Shown here in pieces: positions 3,651-25,912 of a stretch of 33,407 nucleotides of DNA. The translations under genes were made by a program, and so were the position numbers. The notes under the pieces are model-generated. The model did no database searches. It was not told the DNA's origin and worked only from the letters and a program-made list of their open reading frames with translations. Source of the stretch: Eubacteriales bacterium (GTDB lineage: Bacteria; Bacillota; Clostridia; Oscillospirales; CAG-382); NCBI GenBank assembly GCA_045652185.1, contig JAZRTU010000004.1, positions 1-33,407 on the forward strand, given 5' to 3'. How positions within the stretch are numbered: position 1 is the first letter of the stretch; each line of letters opens with the position of its first letter.

Positions 3651-4958
3651 TCATTCAACAATAAGCTCGAAGCTCAGTATCTCAACGGGCTGGTATGCAG
3701 TACCCGCAACGTATATCTTCGCACCGCTGATGACGACCTTGCCGTCGTGAATATTACCCGATGCAATAGGAAGCGACGAAAGCGGGATCGTAACGTCAAT
3801 AGTCTGGTTCGGCGTAACGTCACCCGTGTAGCTGTCGGTCTTGCAGTTGAAGTACGGATTCAAAACGAGATATTGCCCGTCTGCATAAGCGTTTGGCGAT
3901 GCGCCATCGAAAAAGATGATAACGCTCGTGTTAACATTTGCCGTCGTGAGCTTGATCTTGAGCTTTGCCGTGCTAATGTCAACTCGGTACCCCTTGTCAA
4001 ACGTGCATTGTGCATCGGGCCAAAGTCCGTTCGAGTTCGTCATCTTCAGCGTGTCGCCGCCTTTGACCGTCATCGTGCCTTGCTCAACGTACCAGCTGTC
4101 CTTGTCAAACGGAAGTATCTCCGTGTTTTCTGAAACGTCAATGAAATTGTCGTAATTTACTCTCTCTGCATTAGGGTCACTCGCGAAATGCTCCTTCAAA
4201 TATGCCGAAATAGTTTCGGCAAACACCTTGTTTCCGAGCTCGCTGAGATGTATTCCGTCAGGCTTGACTACTTGCTTTATCGCATATTCATCGCAAGCCG
4301 CACGAACGTCAATAAGGTCGCATGAAAGCTCGTTCGCAACCTCGCGTGCCGCCTCGTTGTATGTGTCGAGCCATTCGAGAATATCGCGCCCGCCATAAAG
4401 ATCGGGCGATTGACCTTGACTCGCAAAAAATACGTCCACGTCGAGTGGGTTCGTCGTGACGATCAGCGGAACTGCACCGATCTCACGCACCTTTTCAACA
4501 AGCTTCTTCATGTTGCGCTTGAACGCCTCGGGCGTGCATTTCGGCGTGTCCTTCGCCGTCATCAAAAGATCGTTCATCCCAAAGCAAAGCGTCACAAAAT
4601 CAGGGTTCCTTGCTTTAACGAACGCATTGAAGCGTAAAAGCCCCTCTGCACTCGTGATCCCGCCGCGCGCACCGTTGAAAAATTCCATGTTGCATTCCAT
4701 AGCGACCGTTTTTCCCCAGCTTCCGAGCGCCGTGATAGAGTCGCCGAAAACAACGAGCTTCGAGCCGTCGAGTATCTTTTCTTCGATTATCTCACTTTCT
4801 TCAACGCTCACGTCCGTGCTCTCCTCGACGCTTTGCGTGTCACTAACCACGTCGGATCCCTCGCCATTCGGGCTGCATGAAGCGAACATCGTGATAAATA
4901 TGCATAAAACTAAAAATAAAGCCGTTTTTTTCAAATCCTTTACCCCTTTCGGTATCAT
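3651..4958 (-). CDS. SGNH/GDSL-family hydrolase lipoprotein with a C-terminal beta-sandwich-like domain
   Basis: Lipoprotein signal LFLVLCIFITMFASC followed by an acidic linker. SGNH blocks are present: VVFGDSIT (block I Ser), GARGG, GMNDL, DGIHLS (block V Asp/His). About 170 aa of extra C-terminal domain follow. The ATG at 4958 has no SD sequence. A TTG at 4934 preceded by AAAGGGG would give MKKTALF... and may be the true start. Confidence 0.85.
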   Translation of the reverse strand: MIPKGVKDLKKTALFLVLCIFITMFASCSPNGEGSDVVSDTQSVEESTDVSVEESEIIEEKILDGSKLVVFGDSITALGSWGKTVAMECNMEFFNGARGGITSAEGLLRFNAFVKARNPDFVTLCFGMNDLLMTAKDTPKCTPEAFKRNMKKLVEKVREIGAVPLIVTTNPLDVDVFFASQGQSPDLYGGRDILEWLDTYNEAAREVANELSCDLIDVRAACDEYAIKQVVKPDGIHLSELGNKVFAETISAYLKEHFASDPNAERVNYDNFIDVSENTEILPFDKDSWYVEQGTMTVKGGDTLKMTNSNGLWPDAQCTFDKGYRVDISTAKLKIKLTTANVNTSVIIFFDGASPNAYADGQYLVLNPYFNCKTDSYTGDVTPNQTIDVTIPLSSLPIASGNIHDGKVVISGAKIYVAGTAYQPVEILSFELIVE

Positions 4959-5784: not shown

Positions 5785-7719
5785 ATGAAAAATAAACGGA
5801 TAAAGAAGATTGGCGTTGTTTTCCTCGTGCTTGTCAGCACGATCTTGCTCGCATCGTCGTGCGTGATGATAGTGTATAGCGCGGTGGACGGCGTGTATGA
5901 AAGAAATAAAACCTTTTTTAGTAGCAGCTTGTGTGAGTTTACTGTCGATATCTACGAGAAAGATTTTATCGAGTATTATAATTGTGTTCTCGGACAAACA
6001 TCCGAGCTCTCAAAATATTCGGGCGAATCAAGAGAAAAGCTTCTTGAACGCTATGAAAAAATGTTCAGGCAGGAAAATTGTAACGTCTCGGTAGCGCTTA
6101 TGCGTGCCGATAAGGTGATCTTTTCAAATTACGAGCTTGAGGACTACGCTTATGAATGTAAATACCTGTCGCATAGACTGTACCCTAACGCAACATTCTA
6201 TCTGCGAATAGCATCCGAGGTGCATAAGGGAGACATCGTATATACTTATTATACGATTTGGAATTTTCTTCGCAATTATTCTGTGCTTGTATTTGCAGTC
6301 TTTCTTGGCTCATTGGCTTCTGTAATATATGGGCTCGTGAAGCTTTGCAAAATAGCCGGCGGAGATAAAGATGCAACAAACGAAAGCGGAAATGTCATTT
6401 GGCAGGGCGTTAGGATGTTCTGGTTCGATAAGCTCCCGCTTGAAATAATGAGTATCATATTCCTCGGCGGAATTGGATGTCTCGGTTACCTCAGCTTGCT
6501 TTTGAGCGTTGGAGTGTTGGACGAGTGCACGAAGGAGCTGATAAGAGAGTGTCCGTTTTACGTGCTTGGCACAGTCGTTGCGTTGTGGATCGTGATAGCA
6601 TTGGCATTGATGGTTTACCTAACGACTTTTTCGAGACGTGTGAAGGCAAAAATGCTCATCAAAACAACGCTCGTCTATTACGTTGCGGCATCTATAAGGT
6701 ATCTTCTAAATCTTGCATTTAAATTGACCGAAAACGTCTCGGGCGTGCTGAAAAGCATAGCTTTGGTGGTGCTTCTCGCTCTCGGTGACATCGCTTTGAC
6801 GATCGCATCCAACGGAGAGATAACGCTGTTCGTGTTCCTTATACACATGATCTTTCTTTTGGTGCTTCTCTATTTCTTGCTTTGCTTGGGCGCAATAAAA
6901 AAGAAAATACAAAGCTTCTCGAAGGGTGACTTTTCGAAGAAACTCGACGGCGACAATATGTTCGGCTCGCTCAGAAAGTGCGTGGATGATATCAATTCCA
7001 TCAGCGACGGCGTACAGGAAGAGGTAGTTCACAGAATGAAAAGCGAGCGGATGAAAACGGAGCTGATAACTAACGTCTCCCACGATATAAAAACACCGTT
7101 GACTTCAATAATAAACTATGTTGACCTTCTGAAGAAGGAAGAGCTTGAAAACGAGACGGCAAAGGAGTATATCGATGTTCTCGACCGTCAGTCGCAAAGA
7201 CTCAAAAAATTGACCGATGACCTCGTTGAAGCTTCAAAGGCACAAGCGGGGTGTGTTACAGTCAACCGCACACCTATCGATATCTCGGAGCTTCTGAAGC
7301 AGGTCGTTGGCGAGTATTCCGAGCGCCTTTCGGAAAAAGCATTGAACCCGATAGTCGAGGATGATACGGGCGGTGTGACGTTGAACGCCGACGGAAAACT
7401 TATGTGGCGAGTATTCGATAATCTGTTCGGGAACGTATGTAAGTATTCGCTTGAAGGTACTCGAGTCTATATCGGTATGAAAAAGATCGGCGAAAAATGT
7501 GAGATATCAATTACAAACTATTCGAAATACCCTCTAAGCACGATCGACGAGGCTGAGCTTTTCGAACGCTTTGTCCGCGGCGATGCATCGAGAAGTACAG
7601 AGGGAAGCGGTCTCGGACTGTCAATAGCAAGAAGTTTTGTAGAGCTACATGAAGGAAATATGGAGCTGAAAATAGATTCCGACCTCTTTAAAGTAATAAT
7701 AACATTGCCTTTGGTATAA
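5785..7719 (+). CDS. Sensor histidine kinase with a large polytopic N-terminal region
   Basis: H-box SHDIKTPLTSI, N-box DNLFGNVCKYS, G-boxes GSGLGLSIA. About 380 N-terminal residues contain multiple hydrophobic helices. GGGAGG RBS. It starts 16 nt after the regulator gene. Confidence 0.92.
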   Translation: MKNKRIKKIGVVFLVLVSTILLASSCVMIVYSAVDGVYERNKTFFSSSLCEFTVDIYEKDFIEYYNCVLGQTSELSKYSGESREKLLERYEKMFRQENCNVSVALMRADKVIFSNYELEDYAYECKYLSHRLYPNATFYLRIASEVHKGDIVYTYYTIWNFLRNYSVLVFAVFLGSLASVIYGLVKLCKIAGGDKDATNESGNVIWQGVRMFWFDKLPLEIMSIIFLGGIGCLGYLSLLLSVGVLDECTKELIRECPFYVLGTVVALWIVIALALMVYLTTFSRRVKAKMLIKTTLVYYVAASIRYLLNLAFKLTENVSGVLKSIALVVLLALGDIALTIASNGEITLFVFLIHMIFLLVLLYFLLCLGAIKKKIQSFSKGDFSKKLDGDNMFGSLRKCVDDINSISDGVQEEVVHRMKSERMKTELITNVSHDIKTPLTSIINYVDLLKKEELENETAKEYIDVLDRQSQRLKKLTDDLVEASKAQAGCVTVNRTPIDISELLKQVVGEYSERLSEKALNPIVEDDTGGVTLNADGKLMWRVFDNLFGNVCKYSLEGTRVYIGMKKIGEKCEISITNYSKYPLSTIDEAELFERFVRGDASRSTEGSGLGLSIARSFVELHEGNMELKIDSDLFKVIITLPLV

Positions 7720-22897: not shown

Positions 22898-24139
22898 ATG
22901 GTTGAAGAACAAATTAAATTTTTGAAACAATATGATAGCGACGTTGCTGATGCTATATCGGCAGAGCTTGGAAGACAAAGACGTAATATCGAGCTTATCG
23001 CATCTGAAAACTTCGTTTCCGAAGCAGTGCTTGCGGCAATGGGAACAGTGCTCACAAACAAATATGCAGAAGGCTACCCCGGAAGAAGATATTACGGCGG
23101 ATGCGAATGCGTTGACGTTGTTGAGAATATCGCGATCGAACGCGCAAAAGAACTTTTCGGCGCAGAACACGCAAACGTACAACCTCATAGCGGCGCTCAA
23201 GCAAACACAGCTGTTTATATAGCACTCTTGAACCCCGGCGACACAATTATGGGTATGTCTCTCGCGCACGGCGGCCACCTCACACACGGTAGCGGCGTAA
23301 ATATCTCGGGTAAATACTTTAACGTTGTTCCTTACGGCGTAGACCCCGAAACACATGTTATCAACTACGACGAAGTTGAAAGAATAGCAATGGAATGTAA
23401 GCCGAAGCTCATCGTAGCGGGCGCATCTGCATATCCGAGAACAATAGATTTTGAAAGATTTTCTCAAATCGCGAAAAAAGTCGGCGCGCTCTTGATGGTA
23501 GATATGGCTCATATCGCAGGTCTTGTAGCGGCAGGTCTCCATCCCAGCCCCGTTCCCTATGCCGATATCGTTACAACAACGACACATAAAACTCTCCGCG
23601 GACCTCGTGGCGGTTTGATACTTTGTAAAGAAGAACTTGCAAAAGCGATCGATAAAGGTATCTTCCCCGGCTCTCAAGGCGGTCCTCTTATGCATATCAT
23701 CGCAGGTAAAGCAGTATGCTTCAAAGAAGCGCTCAGCGATGACTTCAAAAAATATCAACAACAGATCGTTAAGAACGCAGCCGCACTTGCCGATGCTTTG
23801 AAAAAAGAAGGCTTTGACCTCGTTTCCGACGGTACTGATAACCACCTTATGCTCGTTGACCTCCGTCCGTTCGATATTACAGGTAAAGAAATGGAGCATA
23901 GACTCGACGAGGTATATATCACAGTCAATAAAAACTCTATCCCCAACGACCCTCAAAAACCCACCATCACAAGCGGTATCCGTGTAGGCACACCTGCCGC
24001 AACAACAAGAGGATTCGTTGAAGAAGATATGGTTGAGATCGCACGTCTTATGAAGCTCACCGCAACAGAATTCGAAACCAAAAAGGATTATATCCGCGAA
24101 TGTGTTGCAGCTCTCTGCGATAAACACCCGCTTTATTAA
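22898..24139 (+). CDS. glyA: Serine hydroxymethyltransferase
   Basis: [28 protein letters not shown] and the PLP site [15 protein letters not shown]. 413 aa with a GAGGAA RBS. Confidence 0.97.
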
Positions 24140-24164
24140 TAAGAATAAAAAAGTCTTTCGCCTT

Positions 24165-24199
24165 GCCCAAGTGTTCCTAAGGACACTTGGGCAGTTTTA
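24165..24199 (+). terminator. Intrinsic terminator of glyA
   Basis: GCCCAAGTGT-TCCTAAGG-ACACTTGGGC is a 10-bp stem, followed by AGTTTTATT. Confidence 0.72.
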
Positions 24200-24363
24200 T
24201 TCGCCAAAGGCGAGTGATATTGCTTCGCAGTTATATTCGGCTAATGCCGAGTGATATTGCCTTCGGCAGTTTAAGGCGAATAAAATATCACTGCAAGGCG
24301 AAGCCCATGCAATATCACTTTTGCGGTAGCAAAAATATAACGCTGTCGAAGACAGCATATCAC
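24194..24363. repeat. Dyad-symmetric array of mini-hairpins alternating with 7-mers (GTGATAT/GTTATAT, then ATATCAC/ATATAAC)
   Basis: Forward 7-mers are at 24214, 24230 and 24251. Reverse-complement 7-mers are at 24285, 24312, 24335 and 24357. Seven intervening self-complementary segments have unrelated sequences (details in findings). Confidence 0.7.
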
Positions 24364-24420
24364 TCAAAACCATCAGGAAGAGCGCACTTACTCACCACCA
24401 ACGGCGGTAGTGCTAATGCT

Positions 24421-24460
24421 AAAAAGCCGATACGGAAATAAATCCATATCGGCTTTTTTT
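24421..24460. terminator. Bidirectional intrinsic terminator (serves the minus-strand hemZ-like gene, and a possible plus-strand transcript of the repeat region)
   Basis: AAAAAGCCGATACGGA-AATAAA-TCCATATCGGCTTTTTTT. The stem has 11 pairs and one mismatch, with an A-tract 5' and a T-tract 3'. Confidence 0.72.
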
Positions 24461-24502
24461 ACTGTTCCTTAGCACCCGAACCTAAGGCGAAAGACTCTTT
24501 TT

Positions 24503-25912
24503 TTATCTCTTTAAATATTCATACGGATATCTTGCGTTGCTTTGGCGGTCTACACCGTCTTGCGTTAATATCTTCGTTGTTGCGCCTGAACCACATCCAT
24601 ATATCGAATGCGTTTCGTCTGTCGAAACAATGTTGTAAATGCAAGATCTCCCATCAAGTGTGAACCCACAATTCTCACCGCTTCCGACCGTCTTTTTCTG
24701 GCGGTAGAGGTAGTAGGGTGAATATCCGTTTTCGAAAAGCCGTGTGTGAGAGCGTGAGAGCCGTTTTAAAACGTCAGAGCCGAGTGGGTCGTATGACGAT
24801 GGATCATTTGAGAGAAGTGATGCATTTTTGACGGTCAGCGAATGGATAGTGACGTTTTCGAACCCAAACGAAAGCACGTCGGAAACAGTTTTGTCGAAAC
24901 GCTCATCGTTGTCCTCGGGAAGCCCGACGATGATGTCGGCGTTGCGCGAATGAAACCCGATCTTTTCAGAAATCGAAGCCGCCTCATAAAAAAGCGCAGA
25001 GCCGTGACTTCGCCCGATAGCCTTCAAAACTTCGTCGTTCGTCGATTGCGGATTGATGCTGATACGAGTTACACCGAAATCCTTCGCCAATCGTAGTTTT
25101 TCTTCGGTTATCGTGTCCGGACGTCCCGCCTCAAAAGTGTATTCAATAACGTCGTCCATCGGGAAATATCGTTCAATAGCGGAAAAAAGAGACTTTTCTT
25201 GCTCGAGTGAGAGTATCGACGGCGTGCCGCCTCCAATATAAACGCCCTTTAACGTATGCGCGTTCCTTTTCATCATCGTTGCCTTTTCAACCAGCTCGGT
25301 CTCGAGTGACTTTAGATAATCGGGAAGAAGTGAGTTTAGCTTTTTCGATTCAAGCGCGACGAACGAGCAGTATGAACATCTCGTCGGACAAAACGGTATC
25401 GAAACGTAAAGAAAACAGTCGTCATTTTTGAGCTTTTCCAACTCACGCATTGCGTTTTTTGCAGTAGCGATAGATAGCGCAGTCTTTTCGGCGCTTATCG
25501 CATAATCTTTTTCAAATAGCCTTGCAACAGTATCTTCGTCGAATCGTCGCAAATAATATTCAGCGCGAATAACAGGACGAAGCCCCGCAAGATGTCCCCA
25601 ACAAGGCGAAAATCCGAAAAGCTTTTTCCCGCATTCAATAAAGCAAAGCCCCGTGATGATCTCGGCGACTTGGTTTCTGTCCATCGGGATCGACGTGGCG
25701 TTGTCTCTTTCGCAGTATTCCGCTTCTTCGGTAAAAACGCCTGCCTTTATCGTCGCTTTTGCGAAAATACAGCCGTTTTCCTCACCCAAAAAGAAATATG
25801 CCTCGTTCTCTGTTGAGGTGTGAAAATCCTCGTGTGGAAAATATGAAAGGCACAAAGATGTGAAATAATGGTCGTTGAGATATGGCGTTTGGTTATCAAC
25901 AATGATCTTCAT
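24503..25912 (-). CDS. hemZ: Radical SAM protein, coproporphyrinogen-dehydrogenase-like (HemZ/HemN-like)
   Basis: Radical SAM cluster motif YVSIPFCPTRCSYCSF, GGGTPS, and a HemN-type core with an N-terminal extension of about 160 aa as in HemZ-type proteins. GAAGGTG RBS. The physiological role is uncertain. Confidence 0.82.
   Translation of the reverse strand: MKIIVDNQTPYLNDHYFTSLCLSYFPHEDFHTSTENEAYFFLGEENGCIFAKATIKAGVFTEEAEYCERDNATSIPMDRNQVAEIITGLCFIECGKKLFGFSPCWGHLAGLRPVIRAEYYLRRFDEDTVARLFEKDYAISAEKTALSIATAKNAMRELEKLKNDDCFLYVSIPFCPTRCSYCSFVALESKKLNSLLPDYLKSLETELVEKATMMKRNAHTLKGVYIGGGTPSILSLEQEKSLFSAIERYFPMDDVIEYTFEAGRPDTITEEKLRLAKDFGVTRISINPQSTNDEVLKAIGRSHGSALFYEAASISEKIGFHSRNADIIVGLPEDNDERFDKTVSDVLSFGFENVTIHSLTVKNASLLSNDPSSYDPLGSDVLKRLSRSHTRLFENGYSPYYLYRQKKTVGSGENCGFTLDGRSCIYNIVSTDETHSIYGCGSGATTKILTQDGVDRQSNARYPYEYLKR

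Follow-up and report, generated by a model that had tools for sequence, protein, structure and literature searches.

Gut-1 (Rfam RF01706) is a motif whose consensus presents a short hairpin followed by a GUGAAAU linker, three times over, and which has been held in Rfam since 2010 under the type 'Gene; sRNA' (small RNA), without a function and from uncultured human-gut DNA only. The paper that introduced it rated the motif 'RNA? Y' on the basis of covariation and gave it no function, its 43 members all coming from human-gut metagenomes and the motif being 'detected only in ... human gut' (Weinberg et al., 2010; PMC2864571). In the library searched for follow-up work, Gut-1 is mentioned in this discovery paper alone, and nothing was found on terminator-loop miniature inverted-repeat transposable elements (MITEs) or on mobility linked to intervening sequence (IVS) proteins. 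Here we describe a Gut-1 match of 53.4 bits, against a gathering score of 50, in the spacer between the convergent genes glyA and hemZ of a Clostridia assembly (GCA_045652185.1; the window is the whole stretch analysed, 33,407 nt of contig JAZRTU010000004.1). The match covers positions 24192-24262 of the plus strand, spans model positions 1-77 and is the sole Rfam match in the whole window at standard thresholds. An earlier description made from the letters alone (the sequence-only reading) had given no named family for this spacer, yet the module design it set out, hairpin and heptamer in alternation, is that of the Gut-1 consensus. As shown here, the motif of 77 nt makes up a single arm of a DNA element that is larger. 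We read the 319 nt at 24165-24483, with a probability of roughly 0.7, as a non-autonomous copy of a dispersed family of MITE-like cassettes of gut Clostridia, seated in the apical loop of intrinsic terminator hairpins.

What joins the element to Gut-1 is the set of three short variable hairpins with a GUGAAAU or, here, GUGAUAU linker. The Rfam model is confined to the left arm, whereas the window element adds a mirrored arm, a terminator hairpin, terminal inverted repeats (TIRs), a split host terminator and dispersal, to which the family adds cargo genes; and while Gut-1 was described from the human gut alone, the family is also present in metagenome-assembled genomes (MAGs) from the ruminant gut. 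The right arm (24307-24380, minus strand) reaches 25.3 bits (E = 0.0088) in a permissive scan, under the gathering score. Among 18 related loci the left arm matches Gut-1 in 11 and the right arms never reach threshold, and no other Rfam family was found for the right arm or the downstream modules in the window or these loci. In the flanks of the published Gut-1 Stockholm alignment some members already carry the ATATCAC arm in mirror form and the conserved centre, along with an outer inverted repeat that differs in sequence. The element has a name in part, through its left arm; the mirrored arm, terminator hairpin, ends, split terminator, cargo and dispersal went undescribed with Gut-1. At one related locus (L086) two above-threshold Gut-1 matches (4622-4691 and 6957-7027) lie 2.3 kb apart, so that two elements can be close neighbours.

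Repetitive extragenic palindromes and bacterial interspersed mosaic elements (REP/BIME) of Enterobacteria and Pseudomonas are extragenic hairpin palindromes of about 35 nt in alternating orientation, with a conserved GTAG and the protein RAYT (TnpA-REP). The present element resembles them in its clusters of hairpin palindromes near gene 3′ ends, with a short conserved motif beside each hairpin, and in its extragenic position, 21 of about 30 bracketed copies lying between convergent genes. REP/BIME sequences, however, copy single 35-nt palindromes, whereas here a whole element of ~320 nt with defined ends, and with its own sequence at each hairpin position, occupies the loop of a host terminator; the linker is GTKNTAT rather than GTAG, and no Y1/HUH gene was found in the window or in the loci inspected. 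MITEs with regulatory cargo, such as the Correia elements of Neisseria, pneumococcal RUP and BOX and the bcr repeats of Bacillus cereus, carry terminators or promoters and fold into long hairpins when transcribed. These traits, small size, lack of a transposase, TIRs and many dispersed intergenic copies are common to them and to the present family, which differs in having neither a clear target-site duplication nor an identifiable parent insertion sequence, in its target (the apex of a terminator hairpin), in its tandem mini-hairpins and in the four-helix-bundle protein carried by relatives.

The intervening sequences of 23S rRNA are inserted at the tip of a conserved hairpin (rRNA helix 25 or 45), with the host helix as closing stem; some encode a protein of the PF05635/TIGR02436 family, and they are excised by RNase III. 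The present element resembles them in its position at a hairpin tip, and a protein of the same family (IVP, for 23S rRNA intervening sequence protein) is encoded in 11 of its relatives. The host hairpin there is rRNA, while here it is an intrinsic terminator, and arrays of mini-hairpins are no described feature of rRNA intervening sequences. Other mobile elements also target hairpins: IS1397, ISKpn1 and IS110-family elements insert into REPs by means of a DDE or DEDD transposase, and class C group II introns, which encode a reverse transcriptase, insert at terminators. A host stem-loop defines the insertion site in all of these. The introns insert after the terminator, whereas the element described here lies in the terminator loop, and the transposase and intron genes of these systems are absent from it.

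The glyA/hemZ element and its family

The locus comprises the following parts, with the strand given where a part has one.

22898-24139, plus strand: glyA, serine hydroxymethyltransferase gene (PF00464)
24144-24164: left arm of the host terminator, an A-run and then the stem AGTCTTTCGCCTT, outside the element
24164-24200, plus strand: left end of the element, hairpin-1 (13-14 bp, 24164-24193) and GTTTTAT; terminator and left TIR
24192-24262, plus strand: left array, the Gut-1 match, with hairpins at 24201-24213, 24221-24229 and 24237-24250
24214, 24230 and 24251, plus strand: left-array heptamers GTGATAT, GTTATAT and GTGATAT
24258-24284: conserved centre, hairpin TGCC-TTC-GGCA (24258-24268) and spacer GTTTAAGGCGAATAAA, with nearly invariant columns
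24285-24363, minus strand: right array, mirror of the left, with hairpins at 24292-24311, 24319-24334 and 24342-24356
24285, 24312 and 24357, minus strand: right-array heptamers ATATCAC, with ATATAAC at 24335
24364-24420: variable internal segment, found by blastn in the window and the conspecific contig L124 alone; its place is taken in relatives by other modules or by cargo genes
24421-24460: second terminator-like hairpin of the element, bidirectional (A and T runs), facing hemZ on the minus strand
24461-24483: right end of the element, ACTGTTCCTTAGCACCCGAACCT, imperfect TIR of the 5′ half of hairpin-1
24484-24504: right arm of the host terminator, stem AAGGCGAAAGACT and a T-run, ending at the hemZ stop codon
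24503-25912, minus strand: radical-SAM HemZ-like gene, convergent with glyA

Each hairpin, each heptamer and the 16-nt centre were found where the sequence-only reading had placed them, as were the five occurrences of TTCGCC/GGCGAA in the spacer and the bidirectional terminator-like hairpin, which proper spans 24421-24458. The array is far beyond chance. The window holds 14 copies of GTGATAT or its complement, five of them within 150 nt, where shuffled sequence has 3.9 +/- 1.9; the architecture is repeated in more than 100 other genomes; and a 361-nt segment folds with a z-score of about -10.6 (-10.7 as plus-strand RNA, -10.5 as minus-strand DNA), none of 100 shuffles being as good. Both hairpins at the ends of the element present a G+C-rich stem followed by a U-run, as in intrinsic terminators. 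Hairpin-1 was called by the terminator scan (14 pairs, 7 of them G-C, with the tail TTTTATTCGC), while the hairpin at 24421-24458, with 16-nt arms that are 94% complementary and A5/T7 flanks, was left uncalled by the scan because of one mismatch. The three open reading frames (ORFs) that cross the spacer match no Pfam family.

Promoter-like matches within the element number 2 against 1.7 in shuffles, no excess, the best scoring 9/12. A match of this score, TTGCCT-18-TAAAAT at 24257-24286, falls where conservation of the element is highest and points into the right arm. Its -10 box reads TATAAT in one subfamily, that of L029, L044, L069 and L075, and the spacer varies from ~17 to 21 nt among copies.

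Scanning of species-representative genomes (one per species) for the dyad centre GTGATATTGCC-NNN-GGCAGTTT gave at least 119 matches, and the family counts given here are among the matches listed. Two are chance matches in Proteobacteria; the others, at least 117, are homologous copies of the same architecture, all of them in MAGs or on metagenome contigs. The members listed belong to Acutalibacteraceae, Oscillospiraceae and unclassified Clostridia MAGs and, where a source is named, come from gut or faeces of ruminants and humans. The layout common to them begins with a 13-14-bp hairpin and GTTTTATTCGCC (window 24164-24205), followed by three mini-hairpins with GT-K-N-TAT heptamers, the invariant centre, GGCGAATAAA and three mini-hairpins with complementary heptamers. 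It closes with a variable stretch, sometimes holding small cargo genes, a terminator-like hairpin and the right-end motif ACTGTCCTTAGCAACCC...; this hairpin precedes the motif in all bracketed relatives, and the motif directly precedes the right host arm.

The core measures 208-217 nt in 59 canonical copies. The elements fall into size classes of ~340 nt, 770-870 nt and 1060-1150 nt, of which the larger ones enclose small genes within the same ends; deletion derivatives that lack some modules occur, and indels across the family are not multiples of three. When the left end is compared with the reverse complement of the right end the score is 18.4, against 10.8 +/- 2.4 for shuffled ends, which gives an imperfect TIR of ~20 nt, and the two ends (hairpin-1 and ...ACTGTYCCTTAGCA..) co-vary by subfamily, as in L036 and L086. 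The sequence-only reading held that structure and not sequence is conserved; this is so between the modules of one copy, but across copies each position has its own conserved, covarying sequence.

A further module, 'M2' (GGGTTTTAGGTTCTCCTAACAAG-imperfect hairpin-CCTGCTTGTTACGG), stands beside cargo genes, turned one way or the other, in L074 (~900-1000 nt right of the centre), L038, L034 and L065, and in shortened form in most short copies (for example L010 and L012). It is an imperfect palindrome with ..TAAC / GTTA.. flanks, reminiscent of integron attC sites, and has no Rfam entry.

Dispersal and the split host terminator

Core identity reaches at least 95% (95-99%) in 19 pairs; of the 18 pairs that could be assessed, 17 come from different species and have non-homologous flanks, with essentially no 11-mers in common. 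The left half of the window copy is 98.5% identical over 131 nt to that at L010, a sheep-colon MAG locus of unrelated context. The stem at 24164-24193, previously taken for the glyA terminator, belongs to this half and is the conserved left end of the element. Because this half is so near to L010 while the right arm and right part are unique, the window copy is a mosaic. For 31 of the 117 listed copies a true contig end is no more than 400 nt away, where 6.8 such copies would be expected, and the conspecific contig L124 (99.4% identical), which carries the element, breaks inside the left array. At least two matches to the strict 19-nt centre are present in 18 of 99 assemblies (among the matches listed), and a loose array pattern picked up 7 more copies over 0.93 Mb, where shuffles gave none; by rough extrapolation there would be tens of copies per genome. 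In its small size (319 nt, under ~600 bp), its lack of coding capacity and its imperfect TIRs the element has the properties of a MITE; its multiple copies are a matter of the family as a whole, and the one element-free allele found is from a relative in which HemZ is 81% identical. Among the longer relatives, the proteins encoded are IVP, helix-turn-helix (HTH), DMP19-like and P-loop proteins and no transposase, so that an autonomous parent was not found among them. An association with phages was considered and discarded, the seven IMG/VR matches to the centre being due to chance: six are one common phage sequence, with no array around it. At L006 and L100 the left flank is common and the right flanks are unrelated, the element marking a rearrangement breakpoint.

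The sites that the elements occupy have a common form. At about 30 loci a perfect inverted repeat of 11-20 nt, different at each locus, lies just outside the conserved ends, as an A-run and G+C-rich arm on the left and an arm and T-run on the right; by our own estimate a perfect bracket of at least 11 nt is expected by chance at ~0.004 per locus. If mismatches are allowed the bracket is present in ~26 of 29 short-form loci, and the bracket duplexes have a median energy of -20.1 kcal/mol, against -8.8 kcal/mol when left flanks are paired with the right flanks of other loci. In the 21 bracketed copies between convergent genes the arms lie 0-15 nt from both stop codons, and in 70 of 93 copies a co-directional gene ends 10-27 nt before hairpin-1. 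The window has the same form, with AAAAAAGTCTTTCGCCTT and AAGGCGAAAGACTCTTTTTTT on either side of the 319 nt. Its 13-nt repeat (24152-24164 with 24484-24496), which the sequence-only reading took to bracket the spacer, is real and widens to 21 nt at 90% complementarity (24144-24164 with 24484-24504); it is formed, however, by the arms of the host glyA/hemZ terminator, held 319 nt apart and lying outside the element, as the intact terminator of a relative indicates. In this relative (L122, HemZ 81% identical) the ends of glyA and hemZ face each other across one bidirectional terminator hairpin, AAAACAGATTCCTACAGA-TGAC-CTCTGTAGGAATTTTTT, and homology to the window ends at 24142 and restarts at 24499, with 29 nt of non-homologous sequence between the two points in L122. 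The cross-species comparison, together with the form of the brackets, strongly suggests that the element was inserted into the loop of a pre-existing terminator.

Splitting of the host hairpin by ~320 nt would abolish or cripple host termination, and the element would supply substitutes that face inwards, hairpin-1 with its U-tract for glyA and the hairpin at 24421-24458 for hemZ. Because of these substitute terminators insertion would be nearly neutral, and near-neutral insertion would in turn account for the survival of copies flush against stop codons and for their conservation.

Other loci examined as possible empty sites or targets gave no further alleles. The HemZ relatives L120, L132 and L133 were ruled out as empty sites since their synteny differs (three extra genes or a tiny ORF), and a metagenome scan for filled and empty alleles with the NhaC-like flank protein of L006 returned 55-77% identical relatives only, with no synteny and no arrays. 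Targeting of the IS200/IS605 type was excluded, as the left junction has no constant tetranucleotide. In the spacer after hemZ of L132 (4440-4620) and L133 (2040-2150) the tiny ORF (MTTVAERLKANGNGRRGCPRTAQ, 23 aa) has its own promoter-like sequence and terminator and is absent from the window. At L067 the split host stem (AAAAACCGCAGTC / GACTGCGGTTTTT) recurs intact ~700 nt downstream as AAACCGCAGTC-ACA-GACTGCGGTTTTT (~340 and ~1060 nt right of the centre); this second stem follows two small genes (SLOG-like and HTH). It may have arisen by duplication of the terminator, or may hint at the way in which cassettes are added.

The remainder of the window is ordinary chromosome, with AddAB, arg genes, a two-component kinase, glyA and hemZ and no tRNA gene. 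An ORF of 837 aa (26-2539) has no Pfam match at E <= 1e-5, and an exact-sequence look-up of the glyA product returned no record.

Hairpins, heptamers and cargo proteins

In an alignment of 59 copies, 97.4% of the cells in local hairpins are paired, compared with 84.7% after column shuffling and 28-48% with slid partners, and changes on both sides of a pair number 318 against 100 in shuffles, affecting 26 of 48 pairs (counts that ignore phylogeny). The variable stems contain 770 Watson-Crick, 6 G-T and 13 A-C pairs on the left and 1126, 13 and 6 respectively on the right. Wobble in these stems is below 2% for either G-T or A-C and gives no usable strand signal, for which reason an assignment of strand through wobble pairs was dropped. 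Such near-pure Watson-Crick stems are more typical of DNA palindromes, or of a function on both strands, than of an RNA made from one strand. Hairpin-1 is itself conserved and covarying in the 59 copies, 32 of which have an apical U.G on the plus strand.

The heptamers have the consensus GT-K-N-TAT in both arms and form two opposed sets of three to four, with a start-to-start spacing of 16-27 nt. Their ends (..AT / GT..) extend the adjoining hairpins by A-U and U.G pairs, on the plus strand for the left arm and the minus strand for the right, and the two variable positions fall in the 3-nt linker that is left. Conservation of the heptamers would be due to these closing pairs, with no need of pairing from arm to arm. 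Nested pairing of this kind, which the sequence-only reading had found to be perfect and in which it had taken GTTATAT/ATATAAC for a compensatory change, did not survive the comparison: out of 56 variant left heptamers in 54 canonical copies, a single one has a compensating partner, and it is the window that supplies this case. Covariation is strong in the local hairpins and does not support the nested heptamer pairs; the alternative helix that the sequence-only reading proposed between TTATTCGCC and GGCGAATAA has weak support from it. An 11-nt perfect inverted repeat is present (TTTTATTCGCC, 24195-24205, with GGCGAATAAAA, 24275-24285), and in one subfamily of five copies four have the long-range helix GTTTTATTCG/CGAATAAAA changed in a coordinated way to GTTATATTCG/CGAATATAA, the fifth (CGAAGATA) having a compensating T; GTTATAT is coordinated with CGAATATA/CGAAGATA in five of five copies. 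This covariation is weak, as it amounts to approximately one evolutionary event.

The versions of 770-1150 nt carry genes for XRE-type HTH proteins, a DMP19-like protein, a P-loop/zeta-like kinase and unknowns. In 11 loci the cargo is IVP, a 116-aa protein assigned to PF05635 (E = 7e-26) and TIGR02436, a four-helix bundle whose closest solved structure is 2RLD (deposited, 5 chains). Its gene starts 157 to 163 nt to the right of the centre in most loci (+135 in one), directly behind a TTGAAA-N17-TATAAT promoter whose -35 box abuts the last heptamer. The subfamily has more than 5,185 relatives, and each of the best 120 clusters shows an identity of 83% or more, most of them lying on contigs of less than 2 kb. 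No transposase or integrase is found near the IVP loci, and the window copy has no IVP gene. The protein Avd of diversity-generating retroelements also belongs to the 23S rRNA IVS protein family.

A paralogous IVP subfamily (46-50% identical) is preceded, at two independent loci, by a dyad mini-hairpin array with the linker ATGAAG/CTTCAT, each array following a different tRNA gene and terminator and standing before the IVP promoter:

L042, 3360-3560: ATGAAG-type array
L222, 1290-1500: ATGAAG-type array in [Eubacterium] siraeum, a cultured species

Further look-ups of this second subfamily (P0349, P0295) led to the same orthologous locus again and added no independent evidence. At L071 (1380-1500) a long CT-rich/GA-rich inverted repeat follows a tRNA gene and terminator, directly upstream of a third IVP-like gene, and looks like another variant of a dyad element with IVP. 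In an E. siraeum-like strain (L233, 1-505) an RnlA/RnlB toxin-antitoxin pair lies directly upstream of the tRNA, array and second-subfamily IVP gene, a place held by other genes in other strains.

As judged from these loci, array type appears to track IVP subfamily. In the most speculative step of the mechanism that we propose, the array in its folded form, whether single-stranded DNA or RNA, would be the cis-acting site of the IVP four-helix bundle, which is encoded right after the array in the fuller relatives and would be supplied in trans for the window copy. Extended to the whole family, this would make Gut-1-type arrays the nucleic-acid partner of the PF05635 IVS proteins, the two forming transposase-less cassettes that invade hairpin tips, in terminators or in rRNA helices, with subfamily-specific linkers (GTGATAT, ATGAAG and others). 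We put this wider proposal forward very tentatively and give it rather low odds.

Competing explanations and significance

Several observations weigh against the reading of the element as a dispersed MITE-like cassette. Copy number in this genome is known for the window only, in whose 33 kb there is a single copy. The copies examined have no gene for a transposase, an integrase or an HUH nuclease within or close to them, and there is no clear target-site duplication, the junctions presenting recurring TT/ATT on both sides and no consistent direct repeat. A metagenome scan for an empty site with the window's own stem (GTCTTTCGCCTT-N0-24-AAGGCGAAAGAC) gave 0 matches, and the one element-free glyA/hemZ spacer found is that of L122. 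In the orthologous pair L006/L100 the element is 98% identical and the flanking coding DNA 92%, which suggests purifying selection or domestication over a purely selfish repeat. The Watson-Crick 'covariation' could be due in part to templated correction in quasi-palindromes rather than to selection for the fold, and the tie between array type and IVP subfamily is an association only.

The higher conservation of the element in L006/L100 is what would be expected if it were a host-beneficial, possibly domesticated, REP/BIME-like insulator of convergent genes, blocking read-through and antisense transcription and shielding mRNA 3′ ends from exonucleases; the placing of most bracketed copies between convergent genes and flush with both stops, the inward-facing terminators at both ends and the frequent co-directional gene ending just before hairpin-1 fit this as well. 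An insulator leaves unexplained the TIRs, the cargo genes, the association with IVP and the near-identical copies at unrelated sites of different species, and in the element-free relative L122 a plain terminator already does the job. We consider it unlikely, if still a possibility to be reckoned with, as an account of the element in its own right; it is compatible with a mobile element and is no true alternative to one. The lead idea of the sequence-only reading, an independently terminated structured sRNA, is the least probable of the accounts. Such a gene would have its own promoter, end at the terminator at 24421-24460 and act in trans, one possible role being that of a protein sponge by way of single-stranded heptamers. 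The Rfam typing and the rating by Weinberg et al. (2010) favour it, as do the strong covariation of the hairpins, the U.G closing pairs and the U.G of hairpin-1, which in the left arm read correctly on the plus strand, and the weak promoter-like match in the conserved centre. The left array, however, begins 7 nt past the strong terminator hairpin of the same conserved unit, which leaves no room for a promoter and makes read-through necessary; promoter-like matches stay at the level of shuffles, the second array is on the opposite strand, and the bias between G-T and A-C expected for a transcribed strand is missing from the variable stems. TIRs, host-specific brackets, cargo genes and assembly breaks are moreover properties of a DNA element.

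The recurrence of the heptamers in two opposed sets recalls transposon ends or iterons, and would also be consistent with a protein-binding array on double-stranded DNA, in which the heptamers are iteron- or operator-like sites, serving for instance the autoregulation of the adjacent IVP promoter, and the hairpins are incidental. That the -35 box abuts the last heptamer in the fuller relatives, and that the linker changes with the IVP subfamily, would agree with this. Incidental palindromes would not be expected to stay paired through many double substitutions, as they do at 26 pairs; the two variable heptamer positions coincide with those left unpaired in the hairpin model, and most copies, that of the window included, have no IVP gene or promoter to regulate. 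We regard such an array as quite improbable, if slightly less so than the sRNA. The fallback of the sequence-only reading, a REP/BIME- or MITE-like DNA element, proved essentially right in view of the dispersed copies, the TIRs, the brackets and the enrichment at contig ends, and we retain the dispersed MITE-like cassette as the best explanation.

As one arm of a spreading DNA element nested in terminators, Gut-1 calls for experiments different from those suited to an sRNA. In Clostridia MAGs the elements repeatedly cause contigs to break, and their terminator-embedded sites are candidate neutral landing pads. The PF05635/TIGR02436 proteins, which are very abundant in gut metagenomes and have no assigned role, are now tied to Gut-1 by association, and [Eubacterium] siraeum offers a cultured handle on the related ATGAAG-type array and its IVP. 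The pairing of array and IVP, if true, would give a function both to a motif orphaned in Rfam since 2010 and to a very abundant orphan protein family.

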